From NCBI GenBank assembly GCA_002421665.1, contig DISH01000007.1, positions 209,278-273,277 of the forward strand: a stretch of DNA of 64,000 bases, given 5' to 3'. The notes under the pieces were generated by a model. The model searched no databases and was not told the origin of the DNA. It saw nothing but the letters and a program-made list of their open reading frames with translations. A program made the translations under genes and the position numbers. Shown here in pieces: positions 1 to 16,001 of the stretch (positions are counted from its first letter, which is position 1; each line of letters opens with the position of its first letter). The stretch is from Candidatus Omnitrophica bacterium UBA6215 (GTDB taxonomy: Bacteria > Omnitrophota > Gorgyraeia > Pluralincolimonadales > Pluralincolimonadaceae).

Positions 1-741
1 CTCGCTGGCCTTAGCCGCCAAAGCATCCGCCACTTCCACCGGACAGCGCTTTGAGCCAATGCCGTGCAGATACATATTCATCGCGCACAACCGGGCCACG
101 GATTCTACGATATCCACGCCATACAAAGCCTCATTCACCATTAATTCCTTATCGCCTTTGGAGAGCGTAGGATTATTCTTTATCACATAATCAAAAGCAT
201 TCAGCAAAAACCCGCCGGTTCCGCAGGCAGGATCGCAAATCTTCATTCCCGGCTGGGGTTTCATTACTTCCACCATCGCCTTGATCAACGGCCGAGGAGT
301 AAAATACTGACCGGCGCCGCCTTTGGTATCCTGGGCATTCTTCTCCAACAATCCCTCATAAATCGTACCCTTGATATCAATATCCAGCCCCAGCCATTTC
401 TCGGCATCAATCATATTGATCAGTCGCTTCAGCTTAGCCGGGTCCTGGATTTTATTCTGGGACTTGCTGAAAATCCTGCCGATAATCCCGCGCTGTTTGC
501 TTAATTCCCGCAGCACCGTAATATAATGGCCTTCCAGCGGTTCGCCGTCCAGCTTCTTAAGCGACTTCCAACTATACTTGGCCGGGATCTCGCTGTCATG
601 CAACAACTCATCTCGCTCATCCGACATCTTCAGGAACAGCAAATACGTCAACTGCTCCACGTAATCGCCGTAACTTACGCCGTCATCCCGCAGCACATCG
701 CAGTAATTCCATACTTTTTGGACTATTTCATTTTCGCTCAT
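1..741 (-). CDS. hsdM: Type I R-M DNA methyltransferase subunit HsdM (N-terminal ~247 aa; gene runs off the window start)
   Basis: Minus-strand translation from the ATG at 739-741 reads MSENEIVQKVWNYCDVLRDDG...GQYFTPRPLIKAMVEV...ICDPACGTGGFL (HsdM N-domain plus SAM motif I). It is absent from the ORF track because it is open to the window edge. Confidence 0.85.
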   Translation of the reverse strand, partial: MSENEIVQKVWNYCDVLRDDGVSYGDYVEQLTYLLFLKMSDERDELLHDSEIPAKYSWKSLKKLDGEPLEGHYITVLRELSKQRGIIGRIFSKSQNKIQDPAKLKRLINMIDAEKWLGLDIDIKGTIYEGLLEKNAQDTKGGAGQYFTPRPLIKAMVEVMKPQPGMKICDPACGTGGFLLNAFDYVIKNNPTLSKGDKELMVNEALYGVDIVESVARLCAMNMYLHGIGSKRCPVEVADALAAKASE

Positions 742-760
742 AATTTATCCTCATAGAAGC

Positions 761-1774
761 TTAATCCTTCAATTGCGATAGAATAAAACATTTATTCTTA
801 AGAAAAGAAACAATCTTCTCATCTTTTTCGCCTCTAGTATAAATGTTTTTCCGAATTTCTTCATTGGGGCATACTCTATTCTCAAAATCGTAAATACTAC
901 TATTATCCGCTTCGTAGACGGTGGTATAAAATAGCTTATCTTGGATATTTTCTTGAAACACTTGATGCAAACCTAATCTTTCCATGTTAAGCGAATCAAA
1001 TCCAAATCCTAAAAAGAAAATATAGTCAGCTGCGGCTAAATATTGTTGAGCCTCTGTAAAAATAGCTTGCGTTCCATTAGAGGCATTAGGTCGAATGATC
1101 TCAACGTTTTTTGCAATCTCCCAAAACAAATGTGGCTTAGAAAAGTTAATAAGATTGTCTATTGCTCCATATGCTCTGCCGTCTTTTGTATATAAGTTAC
1201 CCACACTTCCATAAAAATGTAAGATTTTGATTTTATCTAGAAATTCCAAATACGTAGCTTGTTCTTTAGGGGTAGCAGAATGTATATAATTACGAACGTA
1301 ATAAGTTCTAGCAATATAATATTCTAGCGCAAGATCATAATTGAAAGTTATAAAACGAACTCTGCCGTTATGAAGTACTTTGTAATCATCATCTAAAAAA
1401 TTAAAAATGTGCCTATGCCAATTGTCATCAAAATTAAATACCAATCTTTGCCTATTACTTGCTTTTTCGGCAGATAAAATTGCATAGGTTATACCGGCAC
1501 GTCCTATTTTCTCAAAATCAATGGGTTGCTTTTCCTCTCTGGCTAAAACTCTTGCTAAAAAAGCATCGATACTATTTAATCCAGATTCTTCCAACCTATC
1601 AGAGAATATACCAATATCTCTACCCGAAATACCATATCCTTCCATAAATTTAATAAAGAGACTATCATGCTTATATCCAACGATTGTCTTTATTAATTCT
1701 GCACCTGTCGGATATCCAAAATCTTTGGATGCTCCTGCGCCTAAGACAAAAACAAACTTTTTATTATTCATCAT
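761..1774 (-). CDS. SIR2_2-family (sirtuin-like, predicted NAD+-consuming) protein, 337 aa
   Basis: Motifs FVFVLGAGAS, ITFNYDLALE, ILHFYGSVG and DYIFFLGFGFD match the SIR2_2 defence-type fold. Its start overlaps the stop of the upstream gene by 1 nt. It ends 19 bp before the hsdM start. Confidence 0.7.
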   Translation of the reverse strand: MMNNKKFVFVLGAGASKDFGYPTGAELIKTIVGYKHDSLFIKFMEGYGISGRDIGIFSDRLEESGLNSIDAFLARVLAREEKQPIDFEKIGRAGITYAILSAEKASNRQRLVFNFDDNWHRHIFNFLDDDYKVLHNGRVRFITFNYDLALEYYIARTYYVRNYIHSATPKEQATYLEFLDKIKILHFYGSVGNLYTKDGRAYGAIDNLINFSKPHLFWEIAKNVEIIRPNASNGTQAIFTEAQQYLAAADYIFFLGFGFDSLNMERLGLHQVFQENIQDKLFYTTVYEADNSSIYDFENRVCPNEEIRKNIYTRGEKDEKIVSFLKNKCFILSQLKD

Positions 1775-2616
1775 TAAATAGCCTCGTCCAAACGTCTTAA
1801 TAAATTACTAACAGCAAATAATCTCCCCAAAGCTTCTTGATGATCTATTTGTTTAATATCACCATGACTCAAAGAATTACGCCACCATTGCATAATCCCC
1901 ATAACGATATGCATAAATCCCTCTTGTTCGCATTGTTCAGTTTTATTGGATAAAGAATTCAATTTGATAAACGGGTGAGCTAAGTTAAAAACCTGCCCCA
2001 TCAAATCAATCCCCACAAGATTGCTTCCGCTTTTCTTCTGAACATAAGTTTCAAACTTCTCTAACGCCTTACGTACCGACTCATTAATATGCCCCTCCAG
2101 AAATAACTTCTGGCAATCCGGCATAAGTAGAGGATGTAAAGAAAACTTCTTTAGTATATCCTGAATCTCAAACGTCGGCGGGACAATGGTAGGCCTGGAT
2201 TTTGGCAAACTTAAGGCTAATATTTCTTTTCTAAGATCTATTCCTATCTTACATAGCTGCTTTGCGAATAATTCAGCCTCATCATACAGTATTGGATTGC
2301 CCTGTGAGTGTCTGCGCTCAATTGCTTGAGGCATTATTTCTCTAACAATAATCTTGATCGTCCTTGGTTTATCCTTATGTAGCTTGCGAATAAACTCAAC
2401 CAAAGCTTCTTTCTTTGAAGAACTCCCCTTAGATAGATACTTAGACAGTCCTCTTTTCTTGGCAATACTTACTATATTAAATCTGCTTTTATAGCCGGAA
2501 TAAGGCACAAGTTCGCCTAGCATTTCAGCCAATATACGGATATTCTGTATATCTACGGCTGAAAACCGTTTTACACACACCTTTTGTATTCTCTTCTTAT
2601 GTTTTCGCTTTTTCAT
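1774..2616 (-). CDS. HEPN-domain protein (Abi_C / TIGR02391-like C-terminus), 280 aa, basic N-terminus
   Basis: C-terminal block EGHINESVRKALEKFE...GIDLMGQVF...MQWWRNSLSHGD carries an Rx4H HEPN motif in an Abi_C-like context. N-terminus is Lys/Arg-rich (MKKRKHKKRIQK). Confidence 0.55.
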   Translation of the reverse strand: MKKRKHKKRIQKVCVKRFSAVDIQNIRILAEMLGELVPYSGYKSRFNIVSIAKKRGLSKYLSKGSSSKKEALVEFIRKLHKDKPRTIKIIVREIMPQAIERRHSQGNPILYDEAELFAKQLCKIGIDLRKEILALSLPKSRPTIVPPTFEIQDILKKFSLHPLLMPDCQKLFLEGHINESVRKALEKFETYVQKKSGSNLVGIDLMGQVFNLAHPFIKLNSLSNKTEQCEQEGFMHIVMGIMQWWRNSLSHGDIKQIDHQEALGRLFAVSNLLRRLDEAI

Positions 2617-2630
2617 TATTCCTTCAAACT

Positions 2631-3263
2631 CTATTCAATTTTCTTATCCAAAGAACGTAAAATTCTTGGACCTACATCTAATGCCCATAAAGCTGCATTA
2701 ACATCAACATCTTTTGCATGTACTGCACTATTGAGCAAACCGATTAGATCATCTAAGACACTTCTTTCCTCAATCGACAATAATTTATTATTTGCCAAGA
2801 CTACAAGTATCTGTTTTATCCCTCTCATAGGGATGTTTAACTGATGTTTTTCAGCAATATCGTTTAAACGTTTCTCAATTTCAATACGTAAGCCAGCCAA
2901 AGCGAGTTTAGGGTCTTCATTCGCGACTAACTGGAAAGAATATTTAGGAACTTTAGCGTTTGTAACAGTCTTACCAAGCAACCCTCCGGACTCTATCAAT
3001 CCTGCCTTCTCGGCTTCTCGAGTAACCTCCTGTAATTTTCGTAGCTCTACTTTCATCCCACCAGGGAATTCGATGGACTGAATTATCTCACGCAACCAAG
3101 GGATAAGAGCAATCACTATTAAAATTATAGTAATCGCATCCATTCTTAGATACCCCCAAAATGCATGCTCCACGGCCAAAATTAAAAAAATTACAGTTAC
3201 TAATATTTGTGCTCCTTTTTCTCTACAATAACTCCATATTGGAGATATCCAACGCTTGTTCAT
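2631..3263 (-). CDS. Hypothetical 2-TM membrane protein with cytoplasmic alpha-helical C-domain, 210 aa
   Basis: Two hydrophobic helices (ILVTVIFLILAVEHAFWGY / AITIILIVIALIPWL) precede a charged soluble domain. It overlaps the upstream gene by 4 nt (ATGA). No recognisable motif. Confidence 0.5.
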   Translation of the reverse strand: MNKRWISPIWSYCREKGAQILVTVIFLILAVEHAFWGYLRMDAITIILIVIALIPWLREIIQSIEFPGGMKVELRKLQEVTREAEKAGLIESGGLLGKTVTNAKVPKYSFQLVANEDPKLALAGLRIEIEKRLNDIAEKHQLNIPMRGIKQILVVLANNKLLSIEERSVLDDLIGLLNSAVHAKDVDVNAALWALDVGPRILRSLDKKIE

Positions 3264-4099
3264 AATACGTCACCCTCAATTATCTTAAACCCTCTTTTCT
3301 TGAGTTCCTCGGAAATTTCCTCCTTTAATTTAGGATTCTTTAACCGAGGGTCAATAATAACTCCATCCAAAAAATTCTGGAAATTATGCACAACTGGAAC
3401 GAGAGAAAACTCTTTCCCCATATCTAATTTACAGTTAGTTGCAATAAGTCTTATTTCATTCTCAAAATCAAAGCTACTTCTTTTTTCCAAATAACAACTG
3501 GCGATTGTTCTACTCTTGAAATAAGCCATCTGATCGGCCACGGTTCTTAAGAGGATGTCCATTCCATCATAATCAAAACTAGAATAATTAACTTCACCAG
3601 CCCAGAATGTTTCACTGTAATCTAGAACATCCTTACCGTTTTCTAAAGTTCGCATAATTTTATCAACGCTAGAAACCATCGCGACATTCCTATATTGTGG
3701 ATCTTTACCATACTCTTCCCACATTTTCTTTGATTGCTTCTTACTCCAACATTGGCAAAAAGTATCCTCAAAATACCTTTGCGTAACTATCAAGCCATCT
3801 GGCAGGATGACTTTTTTTCTTAAAATGATTGAATCTAATCGATCTCCGACAAGCCATTTCTTAGGATGACTAAAATATAAAACCTTGCCATCAACATTCG
3901 ATAAAAAATTATCTGATGTTTCTATTCTATAAACTGGGGAGAAACAATCTAGGGTTTCAGGAATAACATTCCTCGCATATGGTTTCCCATTGTATTCTTT
4001 TAGTTCCATGATTACTCTCTCAAGGCTATCCTTCAAGTGTTTTTCACCTTCTTTAGTGGACAAAAACTTACGCGCCTCATCAAAAATATCATTGTACAT
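3260..4099 (-). CDS. Hypothetical protein, 279 aa (no recognisable domain)
   Basis: Long AT-rich ORF, 17 bp downstream of hsdS on the same strand. It is translationally coupled to the 2-TM protein. Confidence 0.5.
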   Translation of the reverse strand: MYNDIFDEARKFLSTKEGEKHLKDSLERVIMELKEYNGKPYARNVIPETLDCFSPVYRIETSDNFLSNVDGKVLYFSHPKKWLVGDRLDSIILRKKVILPDGLIVTQRYFEDTFCQCWSKKQSKKMWEEYGKDPQYRNVAMVSSVDKIMRTLENGKDVLDYSETFWAGEVNYSSFDYDGMDILLRTVADQMAYFKSRTIASCYLEKRSSFDFENEIRLIATNCKLDMGKEFSLVPVVHNFQNFLDGVIIDPRLKNPKLKEEISEELKKRGFKIIEGDVL

Positions 4100-4116
4100 T
4101 TTTCAACCATTCCGCA

Positions 4117-5358
4117 TCAAAATTTAGCCTTTTCTTTCTTTATTCGCTCAAGCAAAACTTCTACCGGTTCATCAGCGGGATCAGGCTCAACCAGATTGCC
4201 TTCAAAAGCTTTCTTTAGAATACTCTGCTTTAGCTGCTCAATTTTATCCAAACCCTGAACCACTGCATCTTCAAGTATTTTTGCCCTCTCAAAATAGTCT
4301 TCTATAGCTTTCACTATTTGTAATTGTTCTTGAGAAGAACATAATGGGAACAAATACTGCAATAAATCATCCTTCCTTATTCCCTTAACAGTCGTTCCTG
4401 AAGTCTTAAACTTAACAGTACCGTAATAATAATAGAAGTAGTCAATATTAATTCTTTCTTTTAGAAAAAAGGCTCTTAAATCCTGGTTAATTGCCACAGC
4501 GATCTTATTAATTTGAATCTTCCCTACACTGATTCTAGTGCAAACAATTATGTTACCTGCAGGGATAAGATTAGTTGAACTACTTTCGACTGCTTTTTTT
4601 GTAATTCTATCAATGGTTGACTCTAAATATTTTCCTTCACTATTCATGTCTTTGACACTAGCCCAAGGGATATTTCCATTCCAATATTCCATATGATTCT
4701 TAGAAGGAGTCCCCCCACCTAAGTCTTTTGCTATTACATCAGCCAAAGTAACTCTACTAAAACTAATCCCAGGGGTTAATCTTCCTTCAAACGCCGATTT
4801 GAGCACTGACTGGCGATAGCGCTTGATTTCCTGCCGCACGCGCAGCAGCGAATCCTTGGCACTATCCAACCGCGAAAACAAACTTTCAATCTTGGCGACA
4901 ATGCGTTTTTGCTCAGAAAGAGAATATATCTCGATTGCAAGATCTTCGAGCTCCTTGGAAGGCACACGGAGCTGTCCTGCTGTCCCTGTCATCTTACTTC
5001 GTAAATATTTCCGAACCTTCTTTTGAATTAAGTAATAAAAACAGTACTTCGGATCGATAGCTTTGGCTAATCTTATAACGTGAAACTCAGTTGAACCGAA
5101 ACCAACACCATTTATCAAACCATTAACTAAAGCCAATTTACCATTTTCCATACAGGGAGTAATCTTCGCAAAAAGAATATCCCCATCCCTAAAAGAAGTA
5201 AACCTGCGTTTCCCTTCTTCGCTCTTAATTTTAGCAGATAAATCAACCATTCCCGTTTCAGCTTCTAGCGCCCTCATTGGTAGAAAACTGGCTATAAAAT
5301 TATTCTTAAGTTTATCTCTGGGATTAATAATTGCTATTTCTTTTATTTTTATTATCAT
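4117..5358 (-). CDS. hsdS: Type I R-M specificity subunit HsdS, 413 aa
   Basis: Central conserved block LSEQKRIVAKIESLFSRLDSA...LKSAFEGRLTP and C-terminal LKKAFEGNLV sit between two variable target-recognition regions. The conserved blocks are visibly GC-richer than the TRDs. Confidence 0.85.
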   Translation of the reverse strand: MIIKIKEIAIINPRDKLKNNFIASFLPMRALEAETGMVDLSAKIKSEEGKRRFTSFRDGDILFAKITPCMENGKLALVNGLINGVGFGSTEFHVIRLAKAIDPKYCFYYLIQKKVRKYLRSKMTGTAGQLRVPSKELEDLAIEIYSLSEQKRIVAKIESLFSRLDSAKDSLLRVRQEIKRYRQSVLKSAFEGRLTPGISFSRVTLADVIAKDLGGGTPSKNHMEYWNGNIPWASVKDMNSEGKYLESTIDRITKKAVESSSTNLIPAGNIIVCTRISVGKIQINKIAVAINQDLRAFFLKERINIDYFYYYYGTVKFKTSGTTVKGIRKDDLLQYLFPLCSSQEQLQIVKAIEDYFERAKILEDAVVQGLDKIEQLKQSILKKAFEGNLVEPDPADEPVEVLLERIKKEKAKF

Positions 5359-5564
5359 TCTATTTCTCTAACTGAGCTCCTGCCAATAGTTAACAAAACA
5401 AGGTTACATACGCAATATTTCTATCTCCAAAAATAAAAAAAGCCCCCAAGAATAACCCTTGCTCTCCTGAGAGATTCGAAAGCAATAAGCCTGCTCGATC
5501 TCTTCAAAAGCCTTCTTCTCTTTCTTCAATGAGATTTATTCTGCTTAAATGCGTATTATACATA

Positions 5565-6668
5565 CTATTCCCCTATTATTAAGACCTCGTACAACCCATG
5601 TCCATTTCGATGATTAAGCTTATACTTATACTTTTTTCTGAAGATGCGAACCTTTGGCTTGTACTTCAACATAAGTTTCTTAATCTTATAGATAGACGGA
5701 TATCCAGGCTGCCCATATGACAGAACTATTATTGAGTCCTTAAACTTATTGAATAAAGCGTCAAGATTATCCTCTATTTTTCCTTCATTCCAATGATTCT
5801 TTTGCTTAACCAGTCTCTTATTCTTTGTTTTTAAATCTATATTCTTGGGCCAATTGTCATAATCGACTATTCCGTCAAGGAAATGATATAGTTCGCGATA
5901 ATCTTTTGGCATTTTTTCGTCTGCTCTGGCATATGGAGGGTCAAAATAAACAAGATCAAATTTTCTGTTCTCTATGTCCAAAATATCCTGGGAAATGGCT
6001 TTATGCGTGGAACCATTTGAGAATACTTTGCTTGAAACTTCTTCATTAAAACGCTTCATCAACTTAGTAAAACAAGTATTCCATGTTATCTTATTGCCAA
6101 AACTACGCTCAATATTTTTAGCAGTTCTAAGCGAAAGATTTTTTCTATGAAAGAGGTTGAAAGGTCTTTTGCATAAACAGGACTGAAATAGTAAATGATA
6201 AGCCAAAGCCTGTTTCTTGGCCAAAACATCACCTTTATATCTTTCTGAGAGCATCTTTATGTTTAGTGCCATCACATCTAATAATCTGTTCTCCTCAGAA
6301 GTATAGTACACTCCTTTAAATGTATCCTCAATATAACTTGGATATTTGAAACCGTTTCGGTGAAATACAAATTCCAGATCGGCTTCATCTAAAGTAATTG
6401 AGTCATTCTCAATTAAAGCTACTCCCGTCATGCGATTAGACGGAAGAATATCGTTAAACGTCACTTTCTTATTCATCAATTTGAATAAATAACTAACACT
6501 GCCTGTGCCACCAAACCCATCGAGAACAGTTTTAAACTGCAGAGATTTTAGATTATCATGTATCCACGGCAATATGCTTCTCTTGCTACCTTGATACCTA
6601 GTAGTAGGAACTCTATGCAGGATATCCACTGGTCCTGCGATTATCTTTTCTTCCAGTTTTTTAATCAC
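5565..6668 (-). CDS. Dam-family (alpha-class, D12) N6-adenine DNA methyltransferase, 367 aa
   Basis: N-terminal FxGxG (DGFGGTGSVS) followed later by DPPY (LVYFDPPYA), which is the alpha-class motif order. It overlaps the upstream ORF by 4 nt. Confidence 0.7.
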   Translation of the reverse strand: MIKKLEEKIIAGPVDILHRVPTTRYQGSKRSILPWIHDNLKSLQFKTVLDGFGGTGSVSYLFKLMNKKVTFNDILPSNRMTGVALIENDSITLDEADLEFVFHRNGFKYPSYIEDTFKGVYYTSEENRLLDVMALNIKMLSERYKGDVLAKKQALAYHLLFQSCLCKRPFNLFHRKNLSLRTAKNIERSFGNKITWNTCFTKLMKRFNEEVSSKVFSNGSTHKAISQDILDIENRKFDLVYFDPPYARADEKMPKDYRELYHFLDGIVDYDNWPKNIDLKTKNKRLVKQKNHWNEGKIEDNLDALFNKFKDSIIVLSYGQPGYPSIYKIKKLMLKYKPKVRIFRKKYKYKLNHRNGHGLYEVLIIGE

Positions 6669-7429
6669 ACTCTTCCCCTGATTATCAAACCCAAAGATTG
6701 TTTTAATGCTCTTTTATATGTTGCATCCCCTATCACTTTAAGGACTTTTCTTTGGTTCACTACGCCTAGTGATTTAAAATCCTCGGATAATCCCAGTGCG
6801 AGTACAGTATTAACATATTTTTGGACATCTTTAAACCTACTGAGCCATTTGCCAAATTCTGCTTTTTTGTATGCTGGCGCTACGCCTTGAATTGTAGTCT
6901 GAAAAGAAGAAAAATTGCTGTGTACATATTTTGATAGCGTTGTATACATAGCACGTACTTTATCAAAAAGCTCTCCTCCTGCCTTACCTTTAAAGTTATT
7001 AACATCATCCAGATGCATAAAATAATCATAATTATCTCCCCAAACATGCTTTCCTTTAAAAAAAGCCTTATCATCTTTCCACCACTTCAGCTCTATAGGA
7101 TGCGATGAAAAATATACCAACCTCAAGACGGTTTCCAACTCCGCCCTTAAAGAAACGTGGGCTTGCTTATACAATGACATGCATGCAAAATAAATGGACA
7201 TGTAAGAATCCATAAACGTTTCTTTAATTAAATCTCTGGCTGAGGTGCCATACTTGCGTTCTAGAGTGTTTCTCCAAGTATCAAAGATGCTAACCATTAC
7301 TAATAGTTTTTCTATTTCGCGATGATTAGCCTTGAGAGTATCTTCCCAATTATTTTTACTCAAACGTTGCTGGCTGTCATACATAATCTTTGTTAACTTA
7401 GGCAACCTCTCGGCTTTGAATGTCTTCAT
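6665..7429 (-). CDS. Hypothetical protein, 254 aa (possible nuclease/effector partner of the MTase-ATPase cassette)
   Basis: ORF tightly packed between the 242-aa gene (2-bp gap) and the MTase (4-nt overlap). No recognisable motif. Confidence 0.45.
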   Translation of the reverse strand: MKTFKAERLPKLTKIMYDSQQRLSKNNWEDTLKANHREIEKLLVMVSIFDTWRNTLERKYGTSARDLIKETFMDSYMSIYFACMSLYKQAHVSLRAELETVLRLVYFSSHPIELKWWKDDKAFFKGKHVWGDNYDYFMHLDDVNNFKGKAGGELFDKVRAMYTTLSKYVHSNFSSFQTTIQGVAPAYKKAEFGKWLSRFKDVQKYVNTVLALGLSEDFKSLGVVNQRKVLKVIGDATYKRALKQSLGLIIRGRV

Positions 7430-7431
7430 TT

Positions 7432-8160
7432 TTACCTCACAAGAATAACAGCTAGTGAATAAAGCTGTTGTTGTGTATTGATATCTTTGCTTAAACTTGA
7501 GATTTTAAATATATTATACTTGTATTTTTGGCATAACAATTCGGCGACCTTCTTAATCAAATCCATTTTCTGCGTATTACTAGAAATTGTTGGAGGGAAA
7601 GCATCCAGGGCCAACCCTCCCCACCCACTAGATTGCATAGCATCAGAAACCCTTTTAACATTATCTCGAGAGATGTCTTCGGAATTAACAACTGTAGTTT
7701 GTAATAATACGAATCCTTTACTGCGTTTCTGCCCTTGTAAAACAATAAAACTCTCAACTTTCTCCAATTCCTTTTCAATCCTGGAGTTATTAACATATAT
7801 ATCTTGGGAAGAAAAATCAAGGTTCAGAATATCACATGGGAAAAGGGGATTAAGTTGACAGGTAGCCGTCGAGATAAGTTCATCGCATATAGAGCCATTC
7901 AAAACTACCCCTAACGCCTCCGTCTCTGCCCTAACAGCTTTGATCATATTGCTGACCCATAAAACACAATCTCCTCTTTGCACCAAATTATTATCTTCTA
8001 ATCGAGATATCTCTTTAAAATTAATTCCATCAGTCAAAGTAAAAAGCTTCATCTGTTTATTCTTTCTACGACTATTATAAAATCTGGCGCCTCCTTCTCT
8101 TGCCATAGGAAGCCAGAGTTCTTCTATCAATTGGTCTCTTAGGGTATCAATTTCTGCCAT
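7432..8160 (-). CDS. Hypothetical protein, 242 aa
   Basis: ORF 4 bp downstream of the GHKL ATPase gene. No recognisable motif. Confidence 0.45.
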   Translation of the reverse strand: MAEIDTLRDQLIEELWLPMAREGGARFYNSRRKNKQMKLFTLTDGINFKEISRLEDNNLVQRGDCVLWVSNMIKAVRAETEALGVVLNGSICDELISTATCQLNPLFPCDILNLDFSSQDIYVNNSRIEKELEKVESFIVLQGQKRSKGFVLLQTTVVNSEDISRDNVKRVSDAMQSSGWGGLALDAFPPTISSNTQKMDLIKKVAELLCQKYKYNIFKISSLSKDINTQQQLYSLAVILVR

Positions 8161-8164
8161 GTCA

Positions 8165-9838
8165 TTACCCTTTGAATACAGTCTCTATCAGATGATTCAA
8201 TTCACTTAGTAATTTTTCTTCGTCTTTCCTATCCTTAGCAATTAAGAGGAACCCCAAAGCGATCTTCTTGATAACGTCTTCGCTGATTTTGCTTTTGAAA
8301 AGTGGGTGTGAGGAATTAAAGGCCACCTTCTTCCCGGAACTATCCAGCTTACAGATAGAATAATGGCTTTTCTTGTAATCCCAGTCATCATAAGTCACAG
8401 AGAATTTCTTGTCGTCTATCTCAATACTCTCGACAAACTCAGGGTGATTGTCATAAATGACAATCGATTTTTCTTTTGGCTTAACTTCGACCGGCTGCTG
8501 TTTATCTTTGGGCTCTTCTTTTCTTGATATAATCTTAAACTGAGTTTTATCTGTTAATGCTTTCTTGATTGTCTCTAGGGTAGAGGTGATCCTTTCTCTG
8601 GATTTTTTTACCATCGGCTCTTTAGAAAGCCTTAATCTTTCTTTCGAGAAATGGAGTATATTTGCTTTTTTAAGCTCCTCAATTAATGGCTCAGAGTCTT
8701 TTAATGGCATTAAGGCTTGATAAATGTCCTTGTCTTGTACAGCCCATTTTTCTTGTACATCGCTCCACTTAGTGAGTTTTTTCCGGAAGAAATCCTGCAT
8801 CTCAGAAACTTCCTGCGTATAAGAAAAGCTGTCTCTGTCAATCATCAAGAAAGAATCCAGTCCGTCCAAGACACAAACTTCTCCGGAAATATAATTTAAT
8901 TTACCTGGCACTTTACCAGTAAGCTTGGAGACCTCAAAATCTGTCGGAAGGCCAACTGCAACATCCCTCAATCTTACCTGCAGCCCTCTCGCCTCTTCAG
9001 GCTCGACTGGCTTTTTCGCAGTGGTAATAACGTATTTTAGATGCACATTTCCGAATTTTTCTTCGCCCTTATCAAGAATCTCTATATTTTCGGGAACATT
9101 TCTGAAAAGTTCTTTTCCGTCGAGCCATAACCTCATTGGTACTCTTTCTGCATCGGCAAAGAAACTCCGCAATATTCTCTGTTCAGGTGAAAACTGTATT
9201 GGAGAATACTGACTTATTGTCCATTTGAATTTCTCAAAACCGCTAAATTTATCTATACTAGACCATCCAGAACCACTCTTTTGACGTAGCTCCTTGATGA
9301 GGTGTTGCTTTATGCCTTTTAACGATATGATAGTCTCTCCATCTTTCTTGGCTAAATCGCTCTTATGAACAGTGCATTTCGCCTTTTCTTTTTCGATATC
9401 AGAAGGAGTGCCGGTAAAGAAACGCTGTGTCTCAATCGTCAACTCAATAAGATCATCACTATCCATTTTTTTAGTAATCACATGGACTGTATTACAATAA
9501 GGAAAGACCGAAAGGCAACCGATACCAAAAGTGCCGATTCGTTTTCTTCCCAGCTCATCCAACTTGTCGGAAGGCTGTGTAACATAGCCTATCGTAAGAA
9601 ACTTTTTCTCAATATCCTCTAGGCTCATACCGCGACCATTATCTCTGACTATTATTTCTCCCCTATCAAGATCCAACTTTATTTTTACTTCAGTTGCGCC
9701 GGCATCATAAGAGTTTGATATAAGCTCTTTGATTGCTCGTGCAAAGTTACGATATAATCCCAAACTCAAATGACTTACTACTTCTTTGTTAACCTTAAAG
9801 GGTAATTCTACCTGTTTAGTTTGATTATCTATTTTCAT
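8165..9838 (-). CDS. GHKL-superfamily ATPase (HATPase_c_3, MORC/Hsp90/MutL-like Bergerat fold), ~557 aa
   Basis: N-box ELISNSYDAGA, G1 box RDNGRGMS and G2 box GTFGIGCLS. An AGGAGG sits 7 nt before the ATG at 9838 (the ORF track begins 2 codons earlier at a TTG). It begins 38 bp after the hsdR stop. Confidence 0.7.
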   Translation of the reverse strand: MKIDNQTKQVELPFKVNKEVVSHLSLGLYRNFARAIKELISNSYDAGATEVKIKLDLDRGEIIVRDNGRGMSLEDIEKKFLTIGYVTQPSDKLDELGRKRIGTFGIGCLSVFPYCNTVHVITKKMDSDDLIELTIETQRFFTGTPSDIEKEKAKCTVHKSDLAKKDGETIISLKGIKQHLIKELRQKSGSGWSSIDKFSGFEKFKWTISQYSPIQFSPEQRILRSFFADAERVPMRLWLDGKELFRNVPENIEILDKGEEKFGNVHLKYVITTAKKPVEPEEARGLQVRLRDVAVGLPTDFEVSKLTGKVPGKLNYISGEVCVLDGLDSFLMIDRDSFSYTQEVSEMQDFFRKKLTKWSDVQEKWAVQDKDIYQALMPLKDSEPLIEELKKANILHFSKERLRLSKEPMVKKSRERITSTLETIKKALTDKTQFKIISRKEEPKDKQQPVEVKPKEKSIVIYDNHPEFVESIEIDDKKFSVTYDDWDYKKSHYSICKLDSSGKKVAFNSSHPLFKSKISEDVIKKIALGFLLIAKDRKDEEKLLSELNHLIETVFKG

Positions 9839-9881
9839 GGTCAAACCTCCTATTCAATTTACTCTTCGGAAGAAAAATAAT

Positions 9882-12557
9882 CTATACCAACACACTATTC
9901 AACTCCTCCATAACATCATCCAGCCTATCCCCAAAAACTTCTTTCGCCTTAATAATCCCGCCGCTGCCGCTAAAGGGCGGCAGGAGGAAGTCTTTTTTAT
10001 CCACACTGCCGGAGCCGGCGATGTGCTCGGCAATCATAGTCAACCACTGAATCTGCCGGCCGGTGAAAGTTTTACCCAAAAACTGTTGATCTTTCAACCA
10101 TTCTTGGAAACGATGTTCCACATGCTCTTTAAACGGCTCCAGGACTTCTTCTTTGCGGACGGCAAAACGCACCAAAGAGATAATGTCGGTTAATTGGGTT
10201 TGCACGGAGAAGCCGCGCACTTTGGATTTTTCCAGTTGTTCGTATGCCTGCCAGAGGGCATCGGTGGTAAAGCCGTAAGGCGGCATTTCGATTTTTTCGG
10301 CTAAGTCGCGGATCTCTTCATAGGTAATATGGCGTTTTTTGTAGGGCAGGTTATAGATGATCTGCAGGGCAGTGATCTTATCTTTATTTTCTGCGACGAA
10401 CTGCTCGAACTTCTTGACCAGGGATAAAGCTTTTTCTTTGGCCTGTTGGTCAAAGCCGGATCTGATGATTTTATCTACGGTAGTAGTGTCAATGGTCTGT
10501 TCGGCCTTGGTTTGTAACGCCGTAAGCAGTTGGCGAAAATCCGGATTATCAAAGGGCGCGCAGGCTTGGTCCCGGTCAGGAGCGGTATCCGGATCGATAA
10601 CGGACATAAGATCGTTGGTAATGTCGGTTAAGGACTTGCCGCCGGATGCTTCTTTAATCCGCTGAATGTCTCTCTCCTCTAATTCCAGGTTCAGGCGCGC
10701 TAAACGCGAAGCCAGGCTGGAAAGTGTATCATTATCCCGGATGCCGATGGCTACGTTGTTGAGTAATTTAGGCGTAGGAACGCTTTTCTGGCGGTCAAGG
10801 GTAGTGGTCTGGCTCTTCTCGCTTTCGCAGACGCCAACGGCATCCACGATCACAAAATGAGTTTTGGCTCTGGCGTCGGAGGTTACCGCGTGCAAATCAT
10901 CCGGATCAATCACCCGGGTGCCGCGGCCTTTCATCTGCTCGAAATAGACCGCGGATTTGACGTCACGCATAAATAAGATACATTCCAGGGGCTTGATGTC
11001 GGTGCCGGTTGAGATCATATCCACGGTTACGGCAATCCGGGGATTGAAGCTATTGCGAAAGGCGGCGATCAGGTCATCGGTGTTTTCTTGGGTGCGGTAG
11101 GTTATTTTCTTGCAGAAATCATTGCCTTTACCGAATTCTTCGCGCACGATACCGGTGATGTCCTCGGCATGGCTATCGTCTTTGGCGAAAATCAGGGTTT
11201 TCGGGACTTCACTGCGTCCGGGAAAGATTTCCGTAAAGAGTTTATCCTTAAACTCGCGGGTAACCGTGCGGATCTGATCTTTAACCACAATACTACGGTC
11301 AAGCTGATCCGGAGTGTAATCTAAATCCTCGTCCAGCTTTTCCCAGCGAAGTTTGCGAGTAAGTTTGTCGCGTTTGTCCACGTAAAAACCGGAAAGGATC
11401 TTGCCCCCTTTTTCCGTAGTCTCGGTGCGAATGCGGTAAACATCAAAACCGACGTTGACCTTATCCGCCACTGCCCGATTGTGGTCGTATTCCATCACCA
11501 GGTTCTTGTTAAAGAAACCGATGGTCTGATTAGACGGGGTGGCAGTAAGGCCGATGATAAAGGAATCAAAGTATTCCAGGACCTGGCGCCAGAGATTGTA
11601 AATGGAGCGGTGGCATTCGTCCACGATGATGAAGTCAAAGGTTTCAATGGGGATCTTGCCCCGGAATTTGATCGCCTGGGGGTCGATGTCAAGCGCAGAT
11701 GATTCATAAAGGGACTTCTCTTCCAAACTGGCGTCCAGTTCCTGGTCGCCTTTAAGCATGGAGAAAAGGCGCTGGATGGTGGTAATGCAAACCTTGGCGT
11801 CCTGGTCAAAGACGTTGGTGGCCATATGCTGGACAATATAGAGATCGGTGAAACAGCGGTTGTCGTCAAAAGGGATATAGCTCTGGAATTCTTTTTTGAC
11901 CTGCCGGCCCAGAGAACAGCGATCAACCAAGAAGAGAATACGGCGGGCCTTGGCGAATTTGATCAGGCGGTAGATTTCGCTGATGGCGGTGTAGGTTTTG
12001 CCACTGCCGGTAGCCATTTGCAGAAGCGCGCGCGGACGGCTGTCATGTAAAGATACTTCCAGATTCTTGACCGCCTCGATCTGGCACTGGCGCAGGTTAT
12101 AGGGATCTAATGGCGGTAATTCGCGCAGGCGCCGGCGCAGGGTTTGCGGATCCTGGACCCATTCGGCTAAAGTTGCCGGGCTGTGAAAAGCAAAAACCCG
12201 GCGGGAACAAGGATCCGGATCACGCTGACTGCGAAAAAAGGTCTCAATACCGGTAGATTCGTAGGCAAACGGCAGAACATCGTCAATATGCGGCAGGTTT
12301 TCAGGGATTGAGGCATTGTAGCGGGCGGTTTGTTCAGCCACGCCGGAAAGCGTGGTGCCTTCGGTTTTGGCTTCCACGGTGCCGACGGCTTTACGATCCA
12401 CAAAAAGCAAATAATCGGCCGGGCCGGATTTAGTGGGAAACTCCCGGACAGCTACTCCCCTGCCGGCGGAAAGATTAATCTTACGGACATCCTGGATAAT
12501 CCATCCGGCTTCTTTTAATAAATCATCGATAACTTTACGTGCCTCTGCTTCGCTCAT
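9882..12557 (-). CDS. hsdR: Type I restriction enzyme R subunit HsdR, 891 aa
   Basis: N-terminus MSEAEARKVIDDLLKEAGW...PADYLLF matches the HsdR_N nuclease domain. Downstream are SF2 helicase motifs (GSGKT, DECHRS). GC is host-like. Confidence 0.85.
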   Translation of the reverse strand: MSEAEARKVIDDLLKEAGWIIQDVRKINLSAGRGVAVREFPTKSGPADYLLFVDRKAVGTVEAKTEGTTLSGVAEQTARYNASIPENLPHIDDVLPFAYESTGIETFFRSQRDPDPCSRRVFAFHSPATLAEWVQDPQTLRRRLRELPPLDPYNLRQCQIEAVKNLEVSLHDSRPRALLQMATGSGKTYTAISEIYRLIKFAKARRILFLVDRCSLGRQVKKEFQSYIPFDDNRCFTDLYIVQHMATNVFDQDAKVCITTIQRLFSMLKGDQELDASLEEKSLYESSALDIDPQAIKFRGKIPIETFDFIIVDECHRSIYNLWRQVLEYFDSFIIGLTATPSNQTIGFFNKNLVMEYDHNRAVADKVNVGFDVYRIRTETTEKGGKILSGFYVDKRDKLTRKLRWEKLDEDLDYTPDQLDRSIVVKDQIRTVTREFKDKLFTEIFPGRSEVPKTLIFAKDDSHAEDITGIVREEFGKGNDFCKKITYRTQENTDDLIAAFRNSFNPRIAVTVDMISTGTDIKPLECILFMRDVKSAVYFEQMKGRGTRVIDPDDLHAVTSDARAKTHFVIVDAVGVCESEKSQTTTLDRQKSVPTPKLLNNVAIGIRDNDTLSSLASRLARLNLELEERDIQRIKEASGGKSLTDITNDLMSVIDPDTAPDRDQACAPFDNPDFRQLLTALQTKAEQTIDTTTVDKIIRSGFDQQAKEKALSLVKKFEQFVAENKDKITALQIIYNLPYKKRHITYEEIRDLAEKIEMPPYGFTTDALWQAYEQLEKSKVRGFSVQTQLTDIISLVRFAVRKEEVLEPFKEHVEHRFQEWLKDQQFLGKTFTGRQIQWLTMIAEHIAGSGSVDKKDFLLPPFSGSGGIIKAKEVFGDRLDDVMEELNSVLV

Positions 12558-12568
12558 ACAACCTCTAT

Positions 12569-13258
12569 TCAGTTATCTGAAAAACTATAGTAATCAGCCC
12601 CGCCTACGATTATATGGTCGAGAACCTCGATTCCCAGTAAATCTGCGGCGGCGGATAAGTCTTCGGTAAATTTCTTGTCTTGAGCGCTCGGTGCAGCGTT
12701 GCCGCTTGGGTGGTTGTGAACGCAAACGATAGATTTGGCGAATTTTTGCAATGCGGCGTGAATTATTTCGCGAACAATAGGAAATGCCTTATCGACCGTG
12801 CCGACGGCCGTATCCGAAATATCGATTATGCGGTTGTTGTTGTCGAGATACACCACCTTGAAAACTTCAGTCTTAAGATCGCGGAGTTGGGGCATTATTA
12901 TATCTACGACATCTTTGGCGGAGGCGACCTTTTGTTTGCCGGTGGACACATCGTCCTGACGATAGCGCCGCCCGATTTCAAGCGCGGCTTGAATATGGGC
13001 AATCTTGGCCCCGCCTAAACCTTTGAATTCTTTCCAATCTCTTGTATCTGTGTGAGCCATGCTCCGAAACGAGCCGAATTTCTTGAGGATAGCTCGGGCG
13101 AGGTCTATCGCGCTGGTCCCCTTTGTGCCTGTGCGAAGAAGAATTGCCAGAAGCTCCGAATCGCTCAAAGCCCCCGCCCCCTTCTTGAGCAGCTTCTCGC
13201 GCGGCCTGTCGTCTATGGGCCAGCTTTTGATACCGGTTATTCGATTCGTTTTTTTCAT
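12569..13258 (-). CDS. radC: RadC-family JAB/MPN domain protein, 229 aa
   Basis: HNHPSGNAAPSAQD JAMM motif plus an N-terminal HhH region. It ends 11 bp before hsdR. Confidence 0.8.
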   Translation of the reverse strand: MKKTNRITGIKSWPIDDRPREKLLKKGAGALSDSELLAILLRTGTKGTSAIDLARAILKKFGSFRSMAHTDTRDWKEFKGLGGAKIAHIQAALEIGRRYRQDDVSTGKQKVASAKDVVDIIMPQLRDLKTEVFKVVYLDNNNRIIDISDTAVGTVDKAFPIVREIIHAALQKFAKSIVCVHNHPSGNAAPSAQDKKFTEDLSAAADLLGIEVLDHIIVGGADYYSFSDN

Positions 13259-13266
13259 ATTTATTG

Positions 13267-14706
13267 CTAGAAGAACAAGAGAAATATCGACAATGGAATG
13301 AACAGCAGCTTCTTTTCGTCTTGCGTCTTAACGAAATCTTTTGTCACAACAATTCCAAATTTCTGATCAAAAGCGTTAACAAAATACTTGATTGACGCCA
13401 GATCGTCCATCGCATCTCTATATTTGACTTCGACCGGCAGATACCGCTTGCCGCCTACATGAACTACAAAATCGACCTCGCGTTTCGCGTCCTTATAGTA
13501 AGACAGCTCTATTGCTCCCTCGAATTGCCGCAAGGCGTTAAATACGAGATTTTCGGCATAAAATCCCATGGCTGAGGGGTCGCTTAAAACGCTTTCGTTC
13601 AGTTTCAAGATAGCGTTTCGCAGCGCTAAATCAAGAAGATAGCATTTCACGCTACCCCGCCTGAACTTAAGCGGCCTTTTTGAGAATCGAGGTAGCGTTT
13701 TTACGAGATCTGTCATTTCCAAAAGCGGCAAATATTTTTCAAGCATCGGCCTGCTGACGCCAACCTTCTGAGAGGCCTTTTCTATATTAATCTCTTGTCC
13801 GGGCTGTTCGATAAGCGACAAATAGTAACTCTTTATTTTCTCCGGCTTCCGGAACTCCGTAGCTATAATCAAATCCTCGAAAATCACCTTTTGTACCTGA
13901 TTATCGAAAAGGTATTCCTGCTTGGCAACAATATCTTCTATTTCCCAGGACTCCGGGAATCCTCCTTCGATAAAATATCTATTCAACTGAATGTTTAATT
14001 CGCGAAAGACGTTCCCCGGAACGTTCAATGGACCGGATTCCGATTGAAATTCCTTCCAATCAACGGCCATTTCTCTTTGAAGTTTATATCCGAAAGCCTG
14101 AGCGCGTTTTACGAAATCAAGGACCTCGCTATCGCCCGCTTTATGAAAATAAACGAATTCCTTGAAAGAAAACGGCAATATATGATTATCTTTTATCCTT
14201 CCTAATAGACTCTCTCGGCTTTTACGGAATATCGGCGATGAGGCGGAACCGGATATGACAAATCTTACAGGAAACCCGAGGTCATAGTATTTCTTCAGAT
14301 ACAGCTCCCAGCGGTCAAAACGCTGAACTTCATCCAGAAAAAAATAAACCGTTTCGCTTTTACGCGTAATATCGGCCCACTTTATCATCTCATCGAAGAA
14401 ATGTTCGCGCATCTGTGGTTCCGACAAAAGTGGATCATCGAAAGAAAAATAGACAATTTGATTGGGCTTGGCATGACCGTCATTAATCAGTGATTGGATA
14501 ATTTGTTTAAGGAGGGTTGTCTTTCCGACTCGACGCGGTCCTGTAATCGAAATGATTTGTTTCAGTGATAAGAGGTCTTTGTAGATTTTATGAAAGACGG
14601 GTCTTTTAAAAACCTCGGTTTTAACTACGCCTTCTTTCCACCAATGGTTATATGGAGTTAATATCGCCTCTATCTGAACGCCGTCAAATTCGCCTCTTCT
14701 CACCAA
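13267..14706 (-). CDS. AAA+ ATPase with DUF4143 C-terminal domain (AAA_14 family), 479 aa
   Basis: Walker A ITGPRRVGKTTLL and Walker B FFLDEVQ. Overall architecture is typical of the DUF4143 ATPase family. Confidence 0.7.
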   Translation of the reverse strand: MVRRGEFDGVQIEAILTPYNHWWKEGVVKTEVFKRPVFHKIYKDLLSLKQIISITGPRRVGKTTLLKQIIQSLINDGHAKPNQIVYFSFDDPLLSEPQMREHFFDEMIKWADITRKSETVYFFLDEVQRFDRWELYLKKYYDLGFPVRFVISGSASSPIFRKSRESLLGRIKDNHILPFSFKEFVYFHKAGDSEVLDFVKRAQAFGYKLQREMAVDWKEFQSESGPLNVPGNVFRELNIQLNRYFIEGGFPESWEIEDIVAKQEYLFDNQVQKVIFEDLIIATEFRKPEKIKSYYLSLIEQPGQEINIEKASQKVGVSRPMLEKYLPLLEMTDLVKTLPRFSKRPLKFRRGSVKCYLLDLALRNAILKLNESVLSDPSAMGFYAENLVFNALRQFEGAIELSYYKDAKREVDFVVHVGGKRYLPVEVKYRDAMDDLASIKYFVNAFDQKFGIVVTKDFVKTQDEKKLLFIPLSIFLLFF

Positions 14707-14789
14707 AACCTCCTATATATTTATGTAAACTATATTTAACATAAATATACTTATTTGTCAACCCTTTAATTATCAATGGGTTAGCCCGC

Positions 14790-15161
14790 TCAAATCTTCC
14801 CCCAAAACTCCTCGCACTTCATTGGCGTCGCCCGTGCATCCTTCGCGTAAAAATACAGCGAGCGGTCGGAGGAGACGACGCGCAGGTTGCGGCGCTGTCG
14901 TGGGGCGATGCTGTCGATGTAGCGCTTAATCCAGCCGTCGGCGTCCTTTGCCGCGACGATGCGCAGCTTCGCGGTGCTCCTTATGGGCATATCGAGGTAC
15001 TCGTTCTTGCTGTCGAAGACAAGTACTATCGGGTCCGCGTGCGACTCCTGGAACTTCTCGAGTATCGCTATCAAGTGCGCGGCCCCGGCGAGGGCGTCGT
15101 CATAATCTATGCTGCTGTGCTCGTGGCGCACCATGTTCCAACCGTCGATGATTATGGGCAT
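14790..15161 (-). CDS. YacP/Rae1-like NYN (PIN-like) domain protein, 123 aa
   Basis: PIIIDGWNMV, IVLVFDS and RVVSSDRSLY align with YacP (LLVDGYNMI, VIVVFDA, ATSDYTEQ). Confidence 0.55.
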   Translation of the reverse strand: MPIIIDGWNMVRHEHSSIDYDDALAGAAHLIAILEKFQESHADPIVLVFDSKNEYLDMPIRSTAKLRIVAAKDADGWIKRYIDSIAPRQRRNLRVVSSDRSLYFYAKDARATPMKCEEFWGKI

Positions 15162-15163
15162 TC

Positions 15164-15991
15164 TTACCTTATGAAATAACCTTTAACTCGAGGCCGCGTA
15201 AAATAAACAACTATAAACACCGATAACGCAATCATAATAATAAAAAACCCCGACCTTATAAACAAACCTAAGGCATCGGATAACCGGAGTACTATAAACG
15301 AAAACACGATACCTGTTACCCAGGAAAATATAACATGTAAAAACCAAGCCAAGCGCAAGCGAAATACGGTTAAAATAGACCTTATAATCAACAATATCCC
15401 CGCAAGAAAAAGAAATCTATAATCAAACCATGGCAAACCTAAAAGTTGCCGCGCAATATATAAAGTGATTGCCCCGACTAAAAAATCCGCTAAACATAAA
15501 CCCTGTATCACCGGCAACCTGCGAAGCGGGTTGTTCTCAATCCTGTTTTTAATGACCGTTGTGGTTGTCCAACCCAAAGCTAAAATTGCGGATATGACAT
15601 TAACTAAAGTGATGGGCGGAAAACCTCTGATAATATTTGGGTCAGCCTTAACCGCTTCCGCTATAGTTCCAGCAACGGCTAATATTACTATATAAAACAT
15701 AACAACAAAATATAAATCCATAACAACAAAACGCCACAATATATCCCAACCGATAAAATCGGTTATTGCAAAGTTATACTTGGTTTTTGAGATCTTTTTG
15801 CCCAAAAAGTCAAAAAGAAATAAACATATAACAGCGCAAATACCGTACTGTAGCGGCTGCAGGCGTTCCGGTATCAAGAAACCCCTTCCCCCGTCCATGT
15901 TAATTTGAGCTATCAGGAAAAACAGGAAAAATATCGGGAAAGTTCTCCAGAACATCGACCAGCCGTTTATAATATCTTCTTTGGTAAACAA
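15164..15991 (-). CDS. Polytopic membrane protein, 275 aa
   Basis: About 7 hydrophobic helices. The C-terminal ~45 aa are paralogous to the downstream 128-aa protein. Confidence 0.55.
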   Translation of the reverse strand: MFTKEDIINGWSMFWRTFPIFFLFFLIAQINMDGGRGFLIPERLQPLQYGICAVICLFLFDFLGKKISKTKYNFAITDFIGWDILWRFVVMDLYFVVMFYIVILAVAGTIAEAVKADPNIIRGFPPITLVNVISAILALGWTTTTVIKNRIENNPLRRLPVIQGLCLADFLVGAITLYIARQLLGLPWFDYRFLFLAGILLIIRSILTVFRLRLAWFLHVIFSWVTGIVFSFIVLRLSDALGLFIRSGFFIIMIALSVFIVVYFTRPRVKGYFIR

Positions 15992-16001
15992 TTAGACCGC
16001 C

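Follow-up and report, generated by a model that had tools for sequence, protein, structure and literature searches.

The GHKL and S5 modules of MutL, topoisomerases and MORC proteins form ATP-driven dimeric clamps, which act together with nucleases and respond to methylation marks. The MORC and paraMORC GHKL ATPases were predicted to act as such clamps in restriction-modification (R-M) operons (Iyer et al., PMC2292703). Ymh-HEPN domains are fused to paraMORCs in R-M neighbourhoods, and these fusions were proposed to provide a back-up like PrrC and RloC, in which the RNase is restrained by the R-M machinery (Anantharaman et al., PMC3710099). R.HgiDII and R.NmeAIP are restriction enzymes containing a GHKL domain (PMC2441816), and GHKL-Shedu (paraMORC3) was shown experimentally to be anti-phage (PMC12137116). 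In this study, we analyzed a four-gene cassette in a window of 64,000 nucleotides (the whole stretch of DNA analyzed) from Candidatus Omnitrophica bacterium UBA6215 (contig DISH01000007.1, positions 209,278 to 273,277). The cassette encodes a GHKL ATPase, a 242-residue protein (p242), a 254-residue protein (p254) and a D12-class DNA methyltransferase. The original prediction, made from the DNA letters, had regarded it as an R-M-like cassette of the kind described by Iyer, Abhiman and Aravind (2008) with a MORC-like ATPase. Our results upheld the conserved operon and its methylase but not the MORC identity, and the R-M-like function is what we infer from them.

The cassette is a real, tightly conserved and horizontally mobile unit, which has been co-inherited across Bacteria and Archaea. 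Like the paraMORC/MORC operons (PMC2292703), it is a mobile operon that combines a DNA methylase with a GHKL ATPase, which belongs to the MutL/Hsp90/MORC branch and has its ATP motifs intact, and as in the paraMORCs the MORC-specific motif is missing. The described operons mostly contain superfamily II helicases, C5 methylases and nucleases of the Vsr, HNH or restriction endonuclease (RE) fold, whereas the cassette has no helicase and no recognizable nuclease. Its methylase belongs to the D12 adenine enzymes (that survey says “rarely adenine”), and the partners of its ATPase are a predicted methyltransferase-fold protein and a predicted HEPN-like protein. We favor, with moderate confidence, the reading that the four genes form an autonomous, horizontally mobile R-M-like module for self/non-self discrimination, which is here inserted in a type I R-M operon.

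Conservation and mobility of the four-gene cassette

The cassette consists of four minus-strand genes at 5565-9838, given here in the order of transcription.

8165-9838, minus strand: GHKL (HATPase_c_3, paraMORC-type) ATPase, 557 residues, assigned from Pfam, NCBIfam and invariant motifs
7432-8160, minus strand: p242, 242-residue partner with a predicted class I methyltransferase fold, related to PP_RS20740, with a degenerate S-adenosylmethionine (SAM)-binding loop
6665-7429, minus strand: p254, 254-residue all-alpha protein, distant DUF5677 relative with a HEPN-like predicted fold, candidate effector
5565-6668, minus strand: D12-class (alpha) N6-adenine DNA methyltransferase, 367 residues, GTG start, assigned from Pfam and PADLOC

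The junctions were as claimed before, with a 4-bp gap between the ATPase and p242 genes, a 2-bp gap between those of p242 and p254, and a 4-nt overlap between those of p254 and the methyltransferase. The ATPase gene starts with the ATG at 9838, which is preceded by a GGAGG Shine-Dalgarno sequence; the mechanical list of open reading frames (ORFs) had extended it to a TTG at 9844.

Conservation of the unit was tested by three independent searches, consisting of tracing of p242, a genome scan with the p254 family and a metagenome scan with the ATPase. The ATPase alone was used in the metagenome scan to avoid circularity, and the loci obtained were then searched with hidden Markov models (HMMs) of all four families. 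Tracing of p242 found the same four genes in the same order in the Brocadiaceae metagenome-assembled genome (MAG) GCA_016187625, in the Planctomycetia MAG GCA_964471325 and in GCA_043956695. The neighbors in these three assemblies were HepT/MNT and TacAT toxin-antitoxin genes, TraU/TraH, a relaxase, integrases and type III R-M genes, and no hsd genes were present in the surroundings. The genome scan gave 11 loci, and the order ATPase, p242, p254 and methylase was found in all nine that were untruncated. The hosts of the 11 loci were Planctomycetia, Phycisphaerae, Pirellulales, Gemmatimonadota and Desulfobacteraceae among the Bacteria, and Methanophagales, Methanoperedens, Aenigmatarchaeota, Woesearchaeota and Micrarchaeota among the Archaea. 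In the metagenome scan, a locus was counted as informative when its GHKL homologue was intact, with at least 41% identity, and was followed by enough downstream DNA, and the methylase was counted wherever the contig reached it. All 43 informative loci were consistent with the unit, 29 with all four genes and 14 cut by the end of the contig but complete up to the cut; no metagenome locus with such an ATPase and enough downstream DNA lacked the 242-like, 254-like or methylase gene. Dozens of unrelated contigs show synteny of the four genes, far more than chance would give, and the synteny in other genomes on which the original prediction depended was thereby borne out.

The four genes did not evolve at the same rate. 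The methylase is the most conserved (52-84% identity to the window protein), followed by the ATPase (43-79%), while p254 (30-72%) and p242 (25-62%) are fast-evolving. Across 32 cassettes, the distance matrices of the ATPase, p242 and p254 correlated mutually with r = 0.80-0.87, whereas those of the methylase correlated with the other three with r = 0.58-0.65. In five loci the methylase gene was inverted relative to the other three genes, yet adjacent to them. This pattern of correlation together with the occasional inversion fits separate restriction and modification halves. Truncated remnants of the ATPase without partners were found in four loci (L064, L075, L081 and L083), which resemble decayed copies. 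Some cassettes are preceded, 50-150 bp upstream of the ATPase gene, by a small and sometimes truncated HTH_17 (excisionase/MerR-like) ORF (L007, 8135-8239; L009, 8050-8172; L046, 476-613; L078, 779-973), which may encode a controller or may have been left behind by a mobile element. It was rejected as a fifth, controller-like core part since only some of the loci have it and the window does not.

In the window the cassette is flanked by hsdR and hsdS; 43 bp separate it from hsdR, and this spacer contains no terminator-like site. The cassette could be an accessory of the type I R-M system around it, comparable to PrrC in EcoprrI, and would then need HsdR, HsdM and HsdS and be co-transcribed with hsdR; HEPN proteins are known to occur within type I operons (PMC3710099), and the copies at L036, L071 and L074 likewise adjoin type I genes. 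However, type I genes were found near the cassette only in the window and in these three of about 55 other loci, and the hsd genes near the three are only 25-31% identical to those of the window, which points to a shared insertion hotspot but not to functional dependence. The other copies, about 50, had no type I genes within 6-10 kb. The cassette has its own methylase, and the guanine-cytosine (GC) content of about 36% across 760-9850, compared with about 50% in the flanking hsdR and hsdM, marks it as a foreign insertion in the type I operon. Since most related loci have no type I genes nearby, the cassette is autonomous, and we consider dependence on the type I system very improbable. The results suggest that the cassette recurrently lands at type I loci, and the tie to hsdR that had been drawn before turned out to be incidental.

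The methylase, the ATPase and the methyltransferase-fold partner

The D12 methyltransferase matched Pfam MethyltransfD12 (PF02086) with an E-value of 7.7e-16 (59 bits; cut-off 22) and the PADLOC model MTase_II with 1.3e-45. The motif FGGTGS (52-57) precedes DPPY (243-246), which is the alpha-class order claimed before, and the residues of motif I (D50, F52, G53 and G54) and motif IV (D243, P245 and Y246) were invariant in 35 homologues. A PDB search gave no match at 0.01. As judged from its sequence, the enzyme carries all catalytic motifs of a D12 N6-adenine DNA methylase. No conventional type II endonuclease accompanied it in any locus.

The assignment of the first gene to the HATPase_c_3 family was confirmed (Pfam, 4e-18), and its Bergerat motifs (E38/N42/D45, D66xGxG70 and G102xFGIG107) were invariant in 47 homologues. 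The protein is neither a histidine kinase, as it has no HisKA domain, nor a MutL, for which the equivalog models scored 20-41 bits against cut-offs of 180-937 and over about 50 residues only; both exclusions agree with the original prediction. A PDB profile search gave HtpG, Grp94, Hsp90, MutL and PMS2 (E-values 1e-8 to 1e-5) over residues of about 20-132 only, and the best PDB and NCBIfam matches, those to Hsp90, MutL and sacsin, were confined to the N-terminal Bergerat fold. The eukaryotic sacsin differs in that it is a single giant protein, chaperone-like and unconnected with DNA methylation; the resemblance is one of architecture only and may be convergent. The MORC S5 signature GhXhhpXXRhl, searched as a regular expression, was found in none of the 30 aligned family members, so that the protein was rejected as a MORC proper although it has the GHKL motifs. 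With no MORC signature motif the ATPase is paraMORC-like, and the operonic association with a DNA methylase, which characterizes paraMORCs, was seen wherever the contig reached the methylase gene, which was always adjacent. From its sequence the ATPase is thus better described as paraMORC-type, and the term “MORC-like” does not hold in the strict sense.

The closest family was that of the BbrUII/HgiDII restriction enzymes (NF050001, 9e-30), in which residues 16-184 of the ATPase aligned with positions 3-173 of the model only. The score was 103.8 bits against a curated cut-off of 550, so that the ATPase is not a member of this family; the PADLOC REase_II models matched the same N-terminal region with 3e-19. 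The two resemble each other in the homologous N-terminal GHKL domain and in the pairing of a methylase with a GHKL protein. The BbrUII/HgiDII systems differ in having two genes and an enzyme of about 660 residues compared with 557 here, in an unrelated C-terminus, and in lacking the two extra obligatory genes; the match itself is limited to about 170 residues. Residues 16-352 of the ATPase were homologous to a 661-residue GHKL protein beside a C5 methylase in a Pantoea prophage (hhalign probability 98.7%), and the GHKL and middle modules are therefore common with methylase-paired GHKL proteins of the R.HgiDII type. This protein, annotated as an “ATP-binding protein”, and its C5 DNA methylase are encoded in the prophage region of plasmid pPagL15_1 of Pantoea agglomerans (L024) among phage replication and lysis genes, and they represent a case of a methylase-paired GHKL protein from a cultured organism. 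The protein is reminiscent of R.HgiDII. In two other loci (L088, 2618-4270; L102, 6228-7844) the gene after that of a distant GHKL ATPase instead encodes a B12-binding radical SAM protein.

The C-terminal half of the window ATPase is unrelated to that of the HgiDII-like prophage protein. Its last 200 residues or so contain two conserved HPxF motifs, and H465, Y483, W486, C496, N508 and H511 in the last 100 or so are invariant or near-invariant polar or aromatic residues. No nuclease fold or motif was found in the C-terminus by Pfam, NCBIfam and PDB profile searches, and no RE-fold, TIR or DUF4263 domain was detected in the ATPase by Pfam, PADLOC and NCBIfam. GHKL-Shedu (VcSduA; PMC12137116) is likewise a GHKL system, validated as anti-phage, in which the ATPase is thought to control an effector nuclease. 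It differs in consisting of one protein, which includes a DUF4263 PD-(D/E)xK nuclease, and in having no methylase, and the cassette contains no DUF4263.

The two middle genes had been described as unknowns with no recognizable nuclease motif. The second part of this description stood, but the proteins are not featureless, since a methyltransferase fold is predicted for p242 and a HEPN-like helical fold for p254. For p242, Pfam, NCBIfam, PADLOC and PHROGs gave no family above threshold, and a PDB search with the family gave chance matches only. Its predicted structure showed the seven-strand Rossmann-like class I methyltransferase fold. No conserved acidic residue follows β2 among 45 sequences, and the hallmark N113-L-D-F116-x-x-Q119 after β4 occupies the position of (D/N)PP(Y/F) in amino-methyltransferases. 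The conserved surface coincides with the canonical ligand-binding loops after β1-β4. The direct match to PP_RS20740 (NCBIfam NF047698) was 22.5 bits (E-value 6e-5) and did not reach the cut-off of 200 bits. In the comparison of families by hhalign, p242 and the PP_RS20740-like proteins were related with a probability of 97% (E-value 1e-10) and had a common FPxD(V/I)xNLD motif. From these profiles p242 is a short relative of PP_RS20740, with a homology that is real despite the weak direct match. By the same method the p242 family showed no similarity to the HgiDII-like prophage protein.

The relationship to PP_RS20740 is clearest in a sister system of three genes, found in the metagenomes at L087, L089, L090, L095, L099 and L100/L101. 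In these loci the ATPase is likewise followed by a methyltransferase-fold partner with the FPxDxxNLD motif and adjoins a DNA methylase. The sister system differs in that its GHKL ATPase is distant (about 27% identity), the partner has 340-410 residues compared with 242 (PP_RS20740 match up to 7e-22), the methylase belongs to the C5 class and carries a fused MutY/Nth-like HhH-GPD glycosylase, and a 254-like gene is lacking. A search of plasmids with the PP_RS20740-like protein gave no match. The sequences indicate that the ATPase and the methyltransferase-fold partner are a conserved pair whichever class of methylase is attached, which places the partner on the side of the ATPase and not in the modification enzyme.

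Methyltransferase folds in two of the four proteins, the conserved ligand-binding loops of p242 and the lack of an identified nuclease are also consistent with a module for non-immune DNA or RNA modification or epigenetic control, in which two methyltransferase-fold enzymes and an ATPase work with a helical specificity or scaffold protein and there is no restriction or toxic arm. We consider this improbable. Conflict systems typically have the features seen here, namely a sporadic spread in Bacteria and Archaea, mobile and defence contexts, decayed copies (those mentioned above) and fast-evolving proteins (p242 and p254), and this GHKL branch is known from restriction and defence proteins (PMC12137116).

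The candidate effector and the proposed mechanism

No family above threshold was found for p254 in Pfam, NCBIfam, PADLOC and PHROGs; the only PADLOC match was a chance-level one to Cas12b (0.0055). The structure model from 26 homologues was all-helical, with a predicted local distance difference test score (pLDDT) of 87 and a predicted template-modelling score (pTM) of 0.86. The window protein did not match DUF5677 (PF18928), but 22 of its 26 close relatives did so weakly (best 1.5e-5), as did 8 of 45 distant relatives at 1e-3 or better. An HMM search of 1.84 billion representatives gave 752 relatives, 187 of them below 1e-10 and 37 below 1e-30. In the alignment, which extended down to 17% identity, R95 and H170 were invariant, and W52, E70, D74, S78, E99, H110, E113, Y162 and S166 were at least 90% conserved. 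This conserved polar cluster suggests a catalytic or ligand site. The spacing R103-x6-H110 is present in the cassette family, but R103 varies in the wider superfamily, so that the motif of p254 is non-canonical. Based on the model, we regard p254 as HEPN-like with moderate confidence. An origin of p254 as a split-off domain of the Ymh-HEPN protein, of the PP_RS20740-like protein or of the C-terminal half of the HgiDII-like protein was rejected, as hhalign found no similarity.

The nearest described arrangement is that of the paraMORC-Ymh(HEPN) fusions such as R.NmeAIP (PMC3710099, PMC2441816), in which a GHKL ATPase is also combined with a HEPN-type domain in an R-M context. The cassette differs from them in that its HEPN-like protein is a separate gene, is related to DUF5677 but not to Ymh, and has no canonical Rx4-6H motif, and in that the methyltransferase-fold gene intervenes between those of the ATPase and the HEPN-like protein.

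In the mechanism that we favor, the D12 methylase would mark the host DNA with N6-methyladenine. The GHKL ATPase would form a dimeric clamp driven by ATP, like those of MutL and MORC, paired with its methyltransferase-fold partner, and the two would interrogate DNA for the missing methyl mark, with p242 probably being a non-catalytic or atypical reader of the site or base. Once unmarked DNA is engaged, the fast-evolving, HEPN-like p254 would be released or activated as the effector. The output favored, with the paraMORC-HEPN fusions and PrrC/RloC as the analogues, would be RNA cleavage and growth arrest. By analogy with what is presumed for R.HgiDII, the effector may instead be a DNase in the ATPase's C-terminal domain.

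Several results weigh against this mechanism. Foldseek found nothing significant for the p254 model in the PDB, the p254 family profile had no relative there at E-values up to 10, and hhalign gave no similarity between p254 and the Ymh-HEPN protein of the window. The canonical Rx4-6H is not kept in the wider p254 family, in which R95 and H170 are invariant instead, and in Enterococcus a DUF5677 protein was tested and did not protect against phage (PMC12632615). The glycine-rich SAM loop of p242 is degenerate (T(D/N)G(V/I)xF), with G45 not invariant among 45 sequences. None of the four proteins showed a recognizable DNase fold. Every member of the cassette stems from uncultured organisms, and IMG/VR viral contigs, PLSDB plasmids and GenBank phages contained no copy of the cassette and no full-length relatives of the ATPase.

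The main rival explanation is a multi-subunit, DNA-cleaving type II-like enzyme with its methylase, in which the nuclease lies in the C-terminus of the ATPase or in its partner p242 and p254 is a structural or regulatory protein but not an RNase. The homology of the N-terminal half of the ATPase to the BbrUII/HgiDII family and to the prophage GHKL protein paired with a C5 methylase speaks for it, as do the six conserved C-terminal residues from H465 to H511 and the lack of Foldseek support for a HEPN fold in p254. The sister system also keeps the ATPase, the partner and the methylase with no 254-like gene, and an effector must therefore exist there without p254. However, the C-terminus shows no nuclease in Pfam, NCBIfam and PDB profiles and is unrelated to that of the HgiDII-like protein, while the polar cluster of p254 is strongly conserved and active-site-like, and p254 co-evolves tightly with the ATPase and p242. 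We therefore consider DNA cleavage by the ATPase C-terminus or its partner rather unlikely. In a bolder form of the favored mechanism, the ATPase and the degenerate p242 would be an ancient and hitherto unrecognized “methylation reader” core, common to the adenine- and cytosine-methylase-linked sister systems in Bacteria and Archaea, which is not a DNA-cutting enzyme but a clamp that on unmethylated DNA of an invader activates a non-canonical, HEPN-like RNase, giving methylation-gated abortive infection. We put this forward tentatively and regard it as unlikely in this full form.

The split type I operon and the significance of the cassette

Two blocks of foreign DNA interrupt the type I operon, giving the order hsdR/cassette/hsdS and hsdS/second block/hsdM. 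The features around the cassette, in the order of transcription, are the following.

9882-12557, minus strand: hsdR, EcoAI/EcoEI-type type I R subunit, assigned from domain and family matches
9839-9881, minus strand: intergenic spacer of 43 bp between hsdR and the ATPase gene with a GGAGG ribosome-binding site, read from the sequence
5428-5473, minus strand: terminator-like hairpin with a U7 run between the methyltransferase gene and hsdS, from RNA folding
5386-5357, minus strand: promoter-like TTGGCA-18-TAGAAT directly upstream of hsdS, from a consensus scan
4117-5358, minus strand: hsdS, with Methylase_S and PADLOC Specificity_I (4e-92)
3260-4099, minus strand: second block, DUF2971/PADLOC PDC-S31 protein
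2631-3263, minus strand: second block, 210-residue protein with hydrophobic N-terminal stretches
1774-2616, minus strand: second block, Hypoth_Ymh HEPN protein (PADLOC PD-Lambda-3_B 1e-10, Aga_HEPN 2e-9)
761-1774, minus strand: second block, SIR2-like protein (PADLOC SIR2 3e-5)
1-740, minus strand: hsdM, starting at about 740 and running off the window start

The stop codon of hsdR is at 9882-9884. The cassette had been placed 38 bp downstream of hsdR; the adjacency was correct, but the distance measured was 43 bp to the ATG of the ATPase gene, or 37 bp if the TTG start is used. A terminator scan found no terminator-like site in the 43-bp gap, so that co-transcription of the cassette with hsdR is possible. 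The hairpin about 95 nt past the methyltransferase stop has 13 pairs, followed by CUUUUUUUAUUUUU in the RNA fold; it is statistically weak (z-score -1.4), and the consensus scan did not flag it. The hsdS gene is situated 206 bp downstream of the methyltransferase gene and is itself low in GC. A repeat search across 600-10100 for insertion scars gave short, chance-level repeats only. On the full contig (L001) hsdM encodes 484 residues and is followed by an Mrr-type restriction gene.

The second low-GC block of four genes (761-4099, minus strand), between hsdS and hsdM, probably represents one or more further defence modules within the same type I operon. Upstream of hsdR, the region 12569-19411 (minus strand) encodes a RadC/JAB protein, an AAA_14 and DUF4143 ATPase, an NYN_YacP nuclease-like protein and a 1011-residue UvrD helicase fused to a PD-(D/E)xK nuclease, and with these genes the region looks like a larger defence island.

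As stated before, the cassette matches neither BREX, DISARM nor Dnd. The component models of the named multi-gene systems in PADLOC-DB v2 (BREX, DISARM, Dnd/Pbe, MADS, Mza and others) were not matched, and PADLOC gave generic REase_II and MTase_II matches and weak, short ones to MzaB (3.5e-6), TmtA (3e-6) and mad2 (2.9e-5), with none for p242. Membership in MADS, raised by matches to mad5 and mad2, was rejected since the mad5 match was generic HsdS similarity, the mad2 match was 21 bits and no other mad model matched. The theme of a paraMORC-type ATPase with a methylase in a mobile R-M-like operon, sometimes with HEPN, was already predicted in 2008-2013. The four-gene architecture, with a D12 methylase, a PP_RS20740-type partner and a DUF5677-related, HEPN-like protein but no helicase or recognizable nuclease, was not found in PADLOC-DB v2 or in the literature searched, and by comparison with these systems the cassette is probably an undescribed variant of R-M-like immunity.

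If functional, the cassette would provide a distinct four-component architecture for the poorly studied GHKL/paraMORC branch, in which only the Shedu-type fusion has been validated. With a length of about 4.3 kb, it would be a compact test case for a MutL/MORC-like ATPase that couples the methylation status of DNA to an effector, which bears on the biology of the eukaryotic MORCs. The results also suggest that the PP_RS20740 family is an obligate partner of GHKL ATPases in methylase-linked systems, and they provide a context for the DUF5677-related superfamily with its roughly 750 representatives. The hosts of the cassette include anaerobic methanotrophic (ANME) archaea, DPANN archaea and anammox-related Planctomycetota, groups in which few defence systems are known.

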